The notes below the pieces were generated by a model. It was given only the letters and a program-made list of their open reading frames with translations. It was not told the DNA's origin and did not search any database. Positions 26,756 through 44,841 of a stretch of 64,000 bases of DNA are shown here, piece after piece; position 1 is the stretch's first letter; each line of letters opens with the position of its first letter. Position numbers and translations under genes: made by a program. This DNA comes from Elusimicrobiota bacterium (lineage in GTDB: Bacteria > Elusimicrobiota > Elusimicrobia > F11), in contig JBGAON010000002.1 in the NCBI GenBank assembly GCA_044221725.1, positions 1-64,000 of the forward strand. Reading direction: 5' to 3'.

Positions 26756-26880
26756 TGAGCATCAGATTCCAAAAATCGATCTGCAAGTTGTGGTTCGAGA
26801 ACGTCGCTTTGCCCGACCTGTGAACTCGGTGGTCCTTAAAAAAAGCTCCGAGAACGTTGACATGTTTGCTACACTTCCGC

Positions 26881-26957
26881 CGCGGGGTGGAGCAGCCTGG
26901 TAGCTCGCGAGGCTCATAACCTCGAGGTCGTAGGTTCAAATCCTACTCCCGCAACCA
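26881..26957 (+). tRNA. tRNA-fMet (CAT), initiator; left copy (attL side)
   Basis: 77-nt cloverleaf, C1:A72 mismatch, anticodon loop CTCATAA, GGTTCAAATCC T-arm, encoded CCA; extended -10 TGCTACACT just upstream. Confidence 0.97.
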
Positions 26958-27011
26958 TTTAAAACCATAGCTTAAGAGCAGTTAGGAAAACTTAAGTCAG
27001 CTTACATTCTC

Positions 27012-27046
27012 AAGGCGATTCGGAGTTTTTCCGGACCGCCTTTTTT
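27012..27046 (+). terminator. Probable intrinsic terminator after tRNA-fMet
   Basis: aaggcgattcgga-gtttt-tccggaccgcc imperfect hairpin followed by T6. Confidence 0.6.
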
Positions 27047-27119
27047 GTTGCCATCCCATCCAGATGACGGTTCCCTGTTTGCTCGATTTGTTGGATTTTT
27101 GGTGTGTTTAGTTATGATG

Positions 27120-27138
27120 CCGATCAGTAAACCGATCA
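27120..27138 (+). repeat. 19-bp motif copy (CCGATCAGTAAACCGATCA), putative integrase arm site
   Basis: 18/19 identical to 44675-44693. Confidence 0.8.
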
Positions 27139-27167
27139 CTTCATTGAGCGGTCGAACGAATATCAAA

Positions 27168-30131
27168 ATGAATAGCCACAAACGCGTGCAGAAAAAATTA
27201 ACCAAAGAGGAACTGAATAGTCGGTTATCTGACCGGCAGGTTACTTTGTTGGGTGATTACGAGAATTATCACGCCAAAACCCTCTTTCAATGTGCAAATA
27301 GCCATACTTGGATGGCCGCACCAGCCAATGTGCTTAATGGCACTGGATGTCCCACATGTTCCGGCAATCGTCCTCTAACCCAAGAAATTGCAAACGAAAG
27401 GTTAAAAGCCAGAGGAATCCGGATGTTGGATCCGTATGTCCATCAGAAATCGAAGGCACGGTTTCAGTGCAAGGAGGGGCATATTTGGGAAACATCATCA
27501 GGGACCGTCTTGTATGAAGGAGGCTGTCCGAAATGTTCAAAGGTGTTAGCCGCAAATAAAAAGCGATTAAAACCGGAAGCAATCCAGAAAAGGCTTGAGG
27601 GTCGGGGCATAGTATTGGTGAGCCAATATTCGCACGCCAACGTCAAAGCTAACTTCAAATGTGGACATGGTCATATTTGGGAAGCAACTCCGGCCAGCGT
27701 AATGAGCGGTAATGGCTGCCCGCAATGTTCTGGACGGGTTCCACTAACAAAAGAAATCATTCAATCCCGAATTGAAAAGCGGGGCATAACCATACTCAAT
27801 TTTTCCGGATCTAAATCCAGATCGCGCTTTGGTTGCGGAGAGGGCCACGAATGGGAAACGAGTCCTTCTAATGTAGTTAATGGGTCCGGATGTCCACGCT
27901 GCGCTAAACAGGCTCAAGAAAACCGCTATAGAAAAATCATCGTTGATGGGCGTGAATTTAAATCAATCCAAAGCGCGGCTCGACATTATGGGCGTTCGAG
28001 CAACAATATTGCTTACCGGCTTTCTAAAGGCTGGACACCTGAACAAGCGGTTGGACTTCACCCACGCCCAAGTTTCGCTGGAAACACCGCTGGCATTCCA
28101 GTAAGGGTGCAGGGCCTTGAATTCTCGAACCTCAAACAAGCGGCAAAACATTTCGGGCGTAGCTACACCTACCTCGTTGGCAGATTAAAGGATGGAAAAA
28201 CGATTGAACAGTCGCTCGGTCTGATCAAGCGAACAGATTCACTTCAATCTGAATATCCTGAATTAGCCAAGCAGTGGCACCCTGAAAAAAACCTTCCGCT
28301 AACTGCCGCGTCAGTAACACCTCATTCAGGAATAAAAGCGTGGTGGTATTGCCTGAATGGTCATGATTGGCAGGCTTCAATCAATAGTCGCGCTCGGGGT
28401 GGACACGGTTGCCCATTTTGCGCAGGTCAAAGACCGACAAAAGAAAGAAATTTCGCTGTCAAATTTCCCGAATCGGTCAAGCAATGGGACTTCGAGAAAA
28501 ATCAGAATCTTCGGCCAGAGGAATGTTCAACTCGCTCTAAGAATGACGTTTGGTGGAAATGTGAGCGAGGCCATTCGTGGCATGCGACGATTCAAAATCG
28601 CACAAGAAAGTGGAAGAGCTCATGTCCTTATTGCATGAATCTAAGATTAGGCTTCGACAATAGTCTTGCTCAAGTGCGTCCAGACATAGCAAAAGAATGG
28701 CACCCAACTAAAAATGCTCCCTTAACTCCAAACGATGTTGTGGCAGGTGGAAGCAAACCAAGATGGTGGATTTGTAAGCATGGTCACGAATGGCAAGCAC
28801 CGATAAATCGTCGCGTTATCAACGGATCCGGTTGTTCAAAGTGTTCGTTACAGACTTCAAGAATTGAAATTGCCGTTTATTCAGAACTAACTGCATTGTT
28901 CGAGGACGTAGTTTGGCGGGAAAAAATTGCCGGATATGAGTGTGATATCTATTTGAAAACTCATGACATCGGAATCGAAATTGACGGGGTCTATTGGCAT
29001 AGTCGGAAGCCAGAGTTAGAGGTAAAAAAATCAAAGTTGTTTGAATCAGAAGGATTGCTGTTGTTCCGTCTAAGAGAGAAAGGACTACAAGCCTTAAGTG
29101 AGCGAGATGTGGCTTTTAAATTTTCTGACAAAGAGTTTCACGTCATCTCTCGATTGGTGAATAGCATCTTGAAGCACGCAAATCTTACGGAAGCCCAACG
29201 AGTAAGGCTTCAAAACTATATATCGGGTCCAGGGCTAATTAATGAGAAGTTTTATCACAAGCTAATCTCAAACCTCCCTGCGCCGCCACCGGACCAATCT
29301 TTGGCTGCGAAGAATCCAGCGATTGCAGCGCAGTGGGCTTTCGATCTCAATGCACCTTTGTTGCCCGAGCATTTTCGATGTGGAGCAAACAAATATGTTT
29401 TTTGGCGATGCTCTGACGGACACACTTGGAAAGCATCGATCAACAATCGGGCCTTACAAGGAACAAAATGTCCTGGTTGTCCTGGCAAGTCCACGGTGAC
29501 GGTAAACGAAGACAACAACTTTGCTTCCAAATATCCCCATCTTGTGCGCGAATGGCATCAAGAAAAAAATGGTGACGTCCTTCCTGGAAAAATTAGGCAT
29601 AAATCGAACCAGATATTTTGGTGGTTATGTAGCAAAGGCCATGAATGGAAATCCTCTCCGAGCAGCCGTGCGAGTGGTCACGGGTGCCCATATTGTTACG
29701 GCCGTTTTGCCTCAAAGGAAAATAATCTGGCATATAAATATCCGGAGTTATTAAAGGAATGGGACTATGAAAAGAACATCGGTCTGAATCCTTCTGAATT
29801 TACTCCACATGTAAATAAGAAGGTGTGGTGGAACTGCAAAAATGGTCACAATTACCAGGCAACAATATCCAATCGAACGAGAAATAAGTCGGGATGTCCA
29901 AAATGCGCACAACACGCAAATCGAAAACATTCAATTGACGATTTTGAGAAACTCGCCAATAACCGTGGTGGAAAATGTTTGAGTACTGAATTTACGAGCA
30001 GTAGAGACAAAATGAAATTTTCCTGCAAAGAAGGACATGTATGGGAAACGCGAGCGGATAGCGTTTTGTATACAGATAAATGGTGTCCAGAGTGTGCAAG
30101 AAAAACGCGCAGAACCATTTCAATTTCCTGA
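27168..30131 (+). CDS. Large zinc-ribbon repeat protein (treble-clef/DUF4379-like repeats, NUMOD1-like HTHs, central PD-(D/E)XK/Vsr-like nuclease domain)
   Basis: 11 C-x3-H...C-x2-C units; ECDIYLKTHDIGIEIDGVYWH motif; start taken at ATG 27168. Confidence 0.85.
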   Translation: MNSHKRVQKKLTKEELNSRLSDRQVTLLGDYENYHAKTLFQCANSHTWMAAPANVLNGTGCPTCSGNRPLTQEIANERLKARGIRMLDPYVHQKSKARFQCKEGHIWETSSGTVLYEGGCPKCSKVLAANKKRLKPEAIQKRLEGRGIVLVSQYSHANVKANFKCGHGHIWEATPASVMSGNGCPQCSGRVPLTKEIIQSRIEKRGITILNFSGSKSRSRFGCGEGHEWETSPSNVVNGSGCPRCAKQAQENRYRKIIVDGREFKSIQSAARHYGRSSNNIAYRLSKGWTPEQAVGLHPRPSFAGNTAGIPVRVQGLEFSNLKQAAKHFGRSYTYLVGRLKDGKTIEQSLGLIKRTDSLQSEYPELAKQWHPEKNLPLTAASVTPHSGIKAWWYCLNGHDWQASINSRARGGHGCPFCAGQRPTKERNFAVKFPESVKQWDFEKNQNLRPEECSTRSKNDVWWKCERGHSWHATIQNRTRKWKSSCPYCMNLRLGFDNSLAQVRPDIAKEWHPTKNAPLTPNDVVAGGSKPRWWICKHGHEWQAPINRRVINGSGCSKCSLQTSRIEIAVYSELTALFEDVVWREKIAGYECDIYLKTHDIGIEIDGVYWHSRKPELEVKKSKLFESEGLLLFRLREKGLQALSERDVAFKFSDKEFHVISRLVNSILKHANLTEAQRVRLQNYISGPGLINEKFYHKLISNLPAPPPDQSLAAKNPAIAAQWAFDLNAPLLPEHFRCGANKYVFWRCSDGHTWKASINNRALQGTKCPGCPGKSTVTVNEDNNFASKYPHLVREWHQEKNGDVLPGKIRHKSNQIFWWLCSKGHEWKSSPSSRASGHGCPYCYGRFASKENNLAYKYPELLKEWDYEKNIGLNPSEFTPHVNKKVWWNCKNGHNYQATISNRTRNKSGCPKCAQHANRKHSIDDFEKLANNRGGKCLSTEFTSSRDKMKFSCKEGHVWETRADSVLYTDKWCPECARKTRRTISIS

Positions 30132-30278
30132 AAAATTCCTCCGATTGATTTGTGGCCCATTTGGTTCTTTTATCGCCCTTTGGTTCCAATCAGAGCAGCA
30201 AGAAATATCCATAGATCAGCCAAGCTTTGATCAGGTAAATTATTGTCATGGATACGTTTTTAAACGCAGAGAAAACGC

Positions 30279-44224: not shown

Positions 44225-44242
44225 ACTCATCAAAAAAAGGGG

Positions 44243-44590
44243 TTAGCAGCATCCGAACTTCCGGCAATCCAAACCTTTTAAAATCTTTTTGTCCTTCGCG
44301 AAGATCGGCGCATCTTCCAAACAGTCGCCGATGCAGGCCAACAGACCCTTATGAAAGGTTCCAGTGGGTTTGGCCAATGAGTAGTAAATCCATTGGCCTT
44401 CCCGCGTGGTTTCAACCAGTCCGTGCCGGCGTAGATAGGCCAGGTGACGTGAAATTTTAGGCTGGGGTGCCTTAATGACGGACATGATGTCGCAGACACA
44501 AAGCTGGCCGTTTGAGAGTAGACTCAAAATACGGAGGCGAGTCTCATCAGCGAAAGCTTTTAGAAGGTTGTTTGGGGAATCGTTGCTCAT
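44243..44590 (-). CDS. arsR: ArsR/SmtB repressor
   Basis: ADETRLRIL, LCVCD, QPKISRHL, REGQWIYYSL, C-terminal CC. Confidence 0.93.
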   Translation of the reverse strand: MSNDSPNNLLKAFADETRLRILSLLSNGQLCVCDIMSVIKAPQPKISRHLAYLRRHGLVETTREGQWIYYSLAKPTGTFHKGLLACIGDCLEDAPIFAKDKKILKGLDCRKFGCC

Positions 44591-44608
44591 ATTCGTTTAG
44601 GCGAATAT
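44589..44608. promoter_or_regulatory. ArsR operator palindrome at the arsR start
   Basis: ATATTCG-N6-CGAATAT perfect inverted repeat overlapping the start codon. Confidence 0.7.
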
Positions 44609-44674
44609 ACAAATCCAACATTAAAGAGGCAAGATCGGTTATTTGGCTACCATTAGCTGCTTTTCGAGGCATTC

Positions 44675-44693
44675 CCGATCAGTAATCCGATCA
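44675..44693 (+). repeat. 19-bp motif reference copy CCGATCAGTAATCCGATCA
   Basis: Two CCGATCA heptamers at 12-bp period, 80 bp before the second tRNA. Confidence 0.8.
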
Positions 44694-44754
44694 GTCGCAA
44701 AATCACCTTCGAAAAACCTCCTCGAAAGTGACTCAAAATAAATTACAATCAGTC

Positions 44755-44831
44755 CGCGGGGTGGAGCAGCCTGGTAGCTCGCGAGGCTCATAACCTCGAG
44801 GTCGTAGGTTCAAATCCTACCCCCGCAACCA
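44755..44831 (+). tRNA. tRNA-fMet (CAT), initiator; right copy (attR side)
   Basis: Identical to 26881-26957 except C for T at the first base of the 3' acceptor strand (G7-C66 instead of G7-U66). Confidence 0.96.
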
Positions 44832-44841
44832 TTTCCAAAAG

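Follow-up and report, generated by a model that had tools for sequence, protein, structure and literature searches.

A head-less integrative element carrying its own terminase pair at a tRNA-fMet gene of an Elusimicrobiota bacterium: a candidate phage satellite

The 64,000-nucleotide stretch of Elusimicrobiota DNA analysed here (contig JBGAON010000002.1 of assembly GCA_044221725.1, positions 1 to 64,000; hereafter the window) harbors a 17.9-kb element, integrated at a tRNA-fMet gene, that encodes both subunits of a phage terminase, the small (TerS) and the large (TerL), next to genes for integration and replication. We consider it rather probable, judging from gene content and conservation, that the element is a satellite that would bring its own packaging motor to the proheads of a helper phage, while borrowing heads, tails and lysis. 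Throughout, the 2.8-Mb host genome is referred to as G000, the compared genomes by G-numbers, contigs by C-numbers, and loci or viral contigs by L-numbers.

A preliminary description of the same DNA had outlined a segment of this size between near-perfect direct repeats at tRNA-fMet, which is confirmed by an 81-bp repeat with one mismatch. The gene calls also agree with the co-oriented block it proposed, running from a DUF5681-like TerS through a helix-turn-helix (HTH) regulator, initiator, DnaB-C, CHC2, MT-A70, Xis, Int and an unassigned open reading frame (ORF) to TerL. To this we add a 1008-aa nuclease-like ORF, a 5.4-kb gap between terS and terL, and a continuation of cargo and low GC content to about 50.1 kb. 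The core reads as follows.

27105..30131, plus strand: zinc-finger nuclease-like ORF, 1008 aa, with nine DUF4379 zinc-finger repeats and endonuclease-family matches
30279..30653, plus strand: TerS, DUF5681-like by ESM Atlas label, 124 aa, with phage homologues located before TerL
30670..31176, plus strand: MerR-type HTH regulator (MerR_1 match, E 5e-8)
31245-32105, plus strand: replication initiator, part of a replication module at 31245..33567
32090-32926, plus strand: DnaB_C, a DnaB-type helicase domain, replication module
32923-33567, plus strand: CHC2 zinc-finger protein, replication module
33570..34133, plus strand: MT-A70 DNA methyltransferase
34102..34296, plus strand: Xis, an excisionase-type HTH_17 protein
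34373..35485, plus strand: tyrosine integrase
35497..36036, plus strand: 179-aa ORF without family match
36041..37495, plus strand: TerL, 484 aa from the ATG, with ATPase and RNase H-type nuclease domains, intact
37496..37640, plus strand: non-coding stretch 3' of terL, with short motifs shared with the relative G242 (a GGTAGC...CTACC hairpin-like site and CGTTTTTCTGATCAA)

All genes from the nuclease-like ORF to a TolC-CzcA-EamA block are on the plus strand, and arsR-arsC-DUF6428 are on the minus strand. In agreement with the earlier claim that capsid, portal and tail are missing, family searches of the 12 ORFs between 27105 and 37969 and of 9 further window ORFs returned no match to portal, capsid, protease, tail or lysis families, and the other cargo ORFs have non-phage Pfam or NCBIfam identities. 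The same kind of search of the element recovered neither a capsid-remodelling or capsid morphogenesis gene nor a primase catalytic domain, with initiator, DnaB_C and CHC2 present, and the 179-aa ORF gave no family or confident Atlas match (best 0.83). The position of the nuclease-like ORF is a variable slot, occupied by a GIY-YIG-like protein in G242 and by a remnant in G282. A promoter-like site was found at 30634-30663, 5' of the MerR-type gene, in promoter and terminator scans that performed at chance level. As a separate observation, TTGATCAG is present at about 30228, upstream of terS, and its reverse complement at about 37605, downstream of terL; both are kept in G242, and the pair brackets the element core in inverted orientation.

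The identity and integrity of the terminase carry much of the argument. TerL matches phrog_2 (E 7e-33), and its predicted model, which has a modest pLDDT of 61 and served only for fold confirmation, matches Sf6 gp2, E217, T4, HK97 and other terminases. Indeed, the gene that had been called intact-looking retains every one of the 66 alignment columns on which at least 95% of 59 relatives agree, including K73, D166, D299, D450 and D453. No Pfam or PHROG family matches the TerS candidate, which groups with DUF5681 clusters in the ESM Atlas (0.94). Among the four viral contigs whose TerL is related (44-65%), all four carry a portal gene after it, and three a homologue of TerS directly before it (L046, with 39% identity and E 2e-26, L047 and L049); weaker homologues precede TerL in G266 (two copies) and in a G104 prophage. 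Thus, the pair is phage-derived and was later split, its subunits now standing 5.4 kb apart with regulatory, replication and integration genes between them; probably, a small integrative replicon acquired the terS-terL pair of a phage. In a quick tree, read without the G144 row because of its very long and unreliable branch, the TerLs of the window, G242 and P0172 (a protein without genomic context) form one clade with 100% support among phage TerLs. A tblastn search with TerS against 50,697 phage records gave no match, and a metagenome scan returned four uninformative loci, one a 49% fragment and three at 25%.

Two side observations concern relatives of these proteins. At G380:C2 (L076:2177-8024), two whole tRNA-Val copies enclose an element of 5.8 kb that encodes an integrase and a homologue of the window TerS and no TerL, and is hence a TerS-only, PICI-like relative. 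In genus g8, which has small genomes, 73 of the 77 genomes match the window TerL (for example G070:C2, G250:C1 and G272:C5; L041-L043); L041 comprises terS-terL-portal-capsid-tail tube genes, and L041 and L042 directly adjoin a type IV pilin-like cluster. Its near-universal presence suggests that a phage module has been domesticated here, possibly as a gene transfer agent.

The closest relative is informative for the absence of head genes. A TerL search of 401 genomes matched 90, with G242 the best by far (91% identity), and it is also the only genome with a close integrase within the family (12 genomes). G242 belongs to the same family and another genus, and its contig C18 carries an element at the same tRNA-fMet with a near-identical arm. 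The order there is variable ORFs, terS (82%), a PolA-type replicon, the methyltransferase (78%), xis (81%), int (58%) and terL, followed by a Pif1/Dda helicase and a bicarbonate transporter as cargo; the 179-aa ORF is absent, and no portal or capsid gene follows terL before the contig ends, 4 kb further on. The methyltransferase-xis-int-terL synteny without capsid genes is therefore present in a second genome, with a PolA-based replication module in place of the initiator-DnaB-CHC2 set of the window, and portal or capsid genes after terL are not a feature of all close relatives. Between the two elements the TerL core is 93% identical, with proportions of synonymous (pS) and non-synonymous (pN) differences of 0.78 and 0.044, and TerS shows pS 0.81 and pN 0.097; the host AddA proteins are 44% identical. 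Judged by these substitutions, the terminase genes are under strong purifying selection rather than relaxed selection, and the saturated synonymous sites of TerL together with its low pN imply that no recent deletion explains the head-less layout. The alternative given in the preliminary description, a prophage in which cargo simply took the place of the late genes, is thus unlikely, considering both the head-less G242 element and the selection.

The layout recurs with a TerL family, phrog_38, that has no significant BLAST match to that of the window (the prophage copy on C3 of G000 being the one compared). G000 has three TerL genes, the phrog_2 gene of the window and two of phrog_38. An earlier idea from a phrog_2 search, namely that G000 encodes no TerL besides that of the window, was rejected on this count, and the C3 prophage is not a TerL-less partner. 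The other phrog_38 copy is in an element at G000:C2:302500-313500 (L108), which encodes a primase, a TerS-like HTH protein, TerL, Xis and Int, in all two tyrosine integrases, along with a type II restriction-modification pair and no head genes. Its TerL is 47% identical to that of the C3 prophage and 83% identical to relatives in G350 and G371. Searching with it matched 44 of the 401 genomes and returned 30 loci, 24 with a whole close TerL: a portal gene is next in 15, an integrase without portal in 8, and one was assigned to neither group. Two more loci are TerL fragments followed by a serine recombinase, and the remaining four are distant (26-28%), with a methyltransferase-DUF5681-like-TerL order and no portal in the 1.5-kb flank. 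At L142-L145 (genus g8), a ParB-methyltransferase, a DUF5681-like gene and TerL stand in a row with no portal in the 1.5-kb flank; these represent a possible further head-less lineage.

Head and tail families gave no match in the wider regions of all eight head-less phrog_38 loci, three of which are on contigs of 10-15 kb. Three lineages are distinguished among their TerLs, and monophyly was rejected by the approximately unbiased test (p-AU 5e-72); this test omitted L139, a locus that had first been labelled portal by default although its next ORF has no family match. The pN/pS ratio is 0.07-0.17 for five head-less pairs, 0.09-0.18 for four portal-linked pairs and 0.27 for one mixed pair, and in the head-less elements shown the TerL C-terminal tail matches that of portal-linked TerLs. 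The tail of the window TerL (37400-37495, QAYYASDL...) loosely resembles the conserved end of this other family (I-F/Y-A/V-D/E-D-L), possibly by chance. Moreover, G371 combines an integrase 49% identical to that of the window, against tRNA-fMet, with a TerS-TerL pair of the phrog_38 family, and carries a CBASS cyclase with a 2TM effector as cargo; beyond these defence genes it has homologues of the leader (43%) and CzcA (42%) of the window cargo. An element at tRNA-Pro (G000:C5:431000-443400, L112) shares DnaB (42%), CHC2 (36%), integrase and zinc-finger genes with the window, and has a resolvase and no TerL. Considering these mixtures, integration, replication and packaging modules appear to be exchanged. 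A broader proposal, which we put forward tentatively and hold with less than even confidence, is that these elements represent an undescribed terminase-only satellite class with at least four origins in Elusimicrobia, swapping TerS-TerL cassettes between integrase backbones and docking on the portal of an unrelated helper.

The element was also set against the published descriptions of known satellites. Phage-inducible chromosomal islands (PICIs), tycheposons, VEIMEs (virion-encapsidated integrative mobile elements) and EPIPs are described with TerS (PMC10085698; PMC9618062; bioRxiv 10.1101/2020.12.28.424599; PMC12822802; PMC8954984), while TerL is given as a marker specific to capsid-forming PICIs (cf-PICIs), where it is accompanied by capsid and portal (PMC10085698). 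With PICIs and the Staphylococcus aureus pathogenicity islands (SaPIs) the element shares an integrase with attachment (att) sites, a MerR-type regulator and TerS (PMC10085698), as well as accessory cargo after the packaging gene, the lack of lysis and tail genes and a size within the reported range. It also has replication genes of its own, although no primase catalytic domain was detected among them. It differs by an intact TerL of its own and by an integrase that is internal, 7.4 kb from attL, rather than terminal (PMC10085698), and further by an initiator-DnaB-CHC2 replication set (PolA in G242) and by the lack of a detected capsid-remodelling gene, although capsid morphogenesis genes are optional in SaPIs (PMC10085698). 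Like cf-PICIs, it has its own TerS and TerL, with several independent phage origins (bioRxiv 10.1101/2022.09.08.507074); unlike them, it has no capsid, portal, protease or head-tail connector and no HNH gene beside terS-terL, so that its TerL would need a foreign portal. Tycheposons and VEIMEs are similar in their tRNA-targeting tyrosine integrases, modular replication genes, ecological cargo and tandem junctions (bioRxiv 10.1101/2020.12.28.424599; PMC9618062), a resemblance that rests on their published description and not on tycheposon profiles, yet their packaging genes are TerS or the major capsid protein, TerL is assumed to be supplied by the helper, and PICI-like tycheposons are described as never seen with extra cargo (bioRxiv 10.1101/2020.12.28.424599; PMC9618062). 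A Caudoviricetes prophage, exemplified by the complete one on C3 of G000, has the head, tail and lysis modules that the element lacks. The element, then, belongs to neither PICIs nor cf-PICIs, yet most likely works like a satellite.

The nearest published counterpart is NitKor-E1 of Ca. Nitrosopumilus koreensis, likewise integrated, with a tyrosine integrase, TerS and TerL but otherwise no viral genes (PMC6563490), and it was the only head-less TerS-TerL element found in print, in a search that left VEIME and SatelliteFinder supplementary gene tables and subscription papers outside. It is, however, archaeal and a single case, its terS adjoins terL, and its authors regarded it as a likely relic (PMC6563490); conservation across genera and repeated origins argue against such a reading here. 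Of the new phage-satellite type suggested in the preliminary description, the layout thus gains from its recurrence in an unrelated TerL family, whereas the novelty is qualified by NitKor-E1, and the satellite lifestyle is one that we infer.

The boundaries of the element comprise the following features.

26880..26960, plus strand: attL, the left 81-bp repeat, a whole tRNA-fMet in its native position after addA and VOC, with a G7-U66 pair
26961..27140, plus strand: P'-type att arm, 84% identical to G242 over 267 bp, tRNA included
43100..43225, plus strand: relic att arm, with an arm motif at 43115 and then a decayed tRNA-fMet 5' end
44675..44834, plus strand: attR, an arm motif (44675-44693) and the right repeat, a second whole tRNA-fMet with G7-C66

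The repeat copies (26880-26960 and 44754-44834) are 99% identical, differing by a T at 26947 and a C at 44821, and each is a complete tRNA-Met(CAT) with a C1:A72 mismatch. This mismatch is a hallmark of initiator tRNA, and the repeat is therefore assigned as tRNA-fMet; the two remaining CAT tRNAs of G000 are both on C3. GC content is 43.0-48.9% inside the element and 49-57% to its left (20-27 kb). The P'-type arm ends with the repeat CCGATCA-N5-CCGATCA at 27120-27138, likely an integrase arm site. The motif CCGATCAGTAA(A/T)CCGATCA, at up to two mismatches, has four sites in the window (27120, 43115, 44675 and 50108; none expected from 100 shuffles) and was not found elsewhere in the 2.8-Mb genome. 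It adjoins the same tRNA in G242, G282 and G350, and is read as an integrase arm site for this reason; an arm-like motif is also present directly upstream of the integrase gene, on the minus strand at about 34307-34325. The pairing at tRNA positions 7-66 is A7-U66 in G242, G282 and G337 and G7-C66 in G371 and G402, which suggests that the left tRNA is a chimera of a host 5' half and an element 3' half with the crossover inside the tRNA; the pattern is not clean, as the G350 tRNA also has G7-U66, plus an insertion. The relic at 43100-43225 is probably an older right boundary, and if so, the ars block looks like a later addition from a tandem neighbour. At the same site, the tRNA-fMet of G350 has a short insertion (L077:520-620) and that of G402 is split by about 200 bp (L074:4380-4669).

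Taken as a satellite, the element would work as follows. Upon phage induction or infection, Int and Xis would recombine attL with attR to yield a circle, which Rep, DnaB and CHC2 would amplify; TerS would then recognise an element-specific start site, and TerL would cut the DNA and pump it through the helper portal, making the helper terminase unnecessary. A head of about 38 kb would hold roughly two copies of the 17.9-kb unit. Having both subunits would free the element from a matching helper terminase, with the TerL-portal contact as the remaining requirement. Were packaging to begin close to terS in the integrated state, the copper block beyond attR would also enter the headful, an idea based on lateral transduction by SaPIs.

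A candidate helper exists in the same genome: a complete, siphovirus-like prophage of about 38 kb beside tRNA-Gln (G000:C3:103900-142400; L090-L092), with serine integrase, portal, protease, capsid, tail, amidase and a phrog_38 TerL. Comparison of the element with this prophage revealed no shared DNA, such as a packaging or operator site, beyond 20-bp chance matches. An IetAS defence pair lies beside the prophage, and G282 contains six TerL copies of its phage family. Sequencing data from four runs, all in the form of contigs, which collapse the 81-bp repeat, revealed no sign of activity. Pieces identical to flank, core and cargo are present in runs of three other studies, and run X5 additionally has a variant integrase piece with 20 differences in 440 bp. 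A joint in X5 that goes back from 44826 to 26913 was rejected as excision, being out of register with the repeat and inside the tRNA. Coverage gaps over the replication genes in X4-X6 fall at a depth of 2-4 and were given no weight, the RNA run X6 does not demonstrate transcription, and a depth ratio does not translate into a share of cells.

Several observations weigh against the satellite reading. The predicted TerL-portal contact is its weak point: the TerL of the C3 prophage is of another family than that of the window, and the prophage portal shares its PHROG families with the portal next to the closest phage TerL, yet the two are only 23% identical. The C-terminal tail of the window TerL is unlike that of its phage relatives. 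G242, 99% complete, has no phrog_12/2662 portal and no phrog_38 TerL, hence no such resident helper was seen there, and scans of viral contigs with the TerS alignment, the integrase or the arm motif turned up nothing closely related to the element. Only two elements of known context carry the window TerL lineage, part of the measured selection could date from the phage ancestor, and att repeats were not found for any of the eight head-less phrog_38 elements. In the probable source run, the depth is 24.1 for the element contig and 30.5 for the left flank, and thus shows no amplification, depth being a poor measure. Finally, the excised circle, replication and packaged DNA are predictions from genes.

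Other uses of the terminase must be weighed on the same evidence. It could be an interference or defence tool that jams helper proheads or cuts phage DNA, with mobility through the helper terminase or another route. Packaging interference is a known satellite strategy (PMC11389934), and related elements do carry defence cargo, as seen for the restriction-modification pair on C2 and the CBASS genes of G371; yet a simple decoy would not need both subunits with both catalytic domains conserved, and every lineage has TerL within a single co-oriented block that also contains Xis, Int and the replication genes, leaving this explanation unlikely. A job apart from capsids, such as reducing replication concatemers to unit-length pieces or passing DNA on to vesicles or a different transfer route, would fit the missing helper in G242, the lack of close viral-contig relatives and the altered TerL tail. 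It is however hard to reconcile with an ATPase motor domain as conserved as the nuclease and with the unaltered tails of the phrog_38 head-less elements, and terminases are not known outside capsid packaging (PMC6563490); we regard such a role as quite unlikely.

Alternatively, the element may be a reduced prophage or proto-satellite that lost its late genes to cargo and retains the terminase as a slowly decaying relic, in analogy to the reading of NitKor-E1. The portal directly after TerL in the nearest phage relatives, the head-less G288 TerL that is sister to a portal-linked one and the broken copy at G144:C4 are congruent with this scenario, and reductive origin is an accepted route for hitchhiking elements (PMC11389934). 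Decay is nevertheless at odds with intact frames and saturated synonymous sites between head-less members of different genera and families, with the rearranged order common to the window and G242 (terS 5-6 kb from terL, with int between) and with three head-less lineages in the second TerL family, and we judge it improbable, the least credible of these options. A satellite supplying its own motor hence remains our preferred explanation.

Beyond the terminase, the region is rich in metal-resistance genes. As noted in the preliminary description, RND (resistance-nodulation-division) efflux and ars genes follow TerL, and a further stack lies outside the repeats.

37688..43125, plus strand: cargo 1, a small leader ORF, TolC-type outer-membrane protein, CusA/CzcA-family heavy-metal RND pump, EamA and a 76-aa membrane ORF
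43251..44590, minus strand: cargo 2, arsR, thioredoxin-type arsC and DUF6428
44835..50160, plus strand: island stack outside the repeats, with an ECF sigma factor, a CopA-type ATPase, secreted proteins and the fourth arm motif (50108)

No arsenite pump is present between the 81-bp repeats. The CzcA-type pump directly follows TolC (38025-42471), with no membrane-fusion protein gene between, and in G371 a 186-aa ORF sits between the corresponding homologues. Metal cargo and low GC run past the right repeat to about 50.1 kb, an arm motif like that at 50108 is found about 160 bp downstream of the same tRNA in G282 and G350, and in G282 tRNA copies at this site enclose cargo units that lack an integrase. 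The tRNA-fMet site is a hotspot at which cargo stacks up; judging from the relic at 43100-43225, cargo would come in through integration in tandem at this tRNA, after which the inner att site would decay.

Described satellites either borrow the TerL of the helper, as P4 and PICIs, or bring a whole head, as cf-PICIs, and a motor without a head fills the gap between them; such elements would be missed or filed as dead prophages by current tools. G000 offers a compact test case: besides a complete prophage it has two elements that lack head genes and whose terminases are unrelated, one TerL being 47% identical to that of the prophage and the other showing no detectable similarity to it. The tRNA hotspot stacks metal-resistance cargo in wastewater-type communities. 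If the satellite reading is true, the assumed tight pairing of TerL and portal would be broken, and metal-resistance and defence islands would gain their own route into phage heads.

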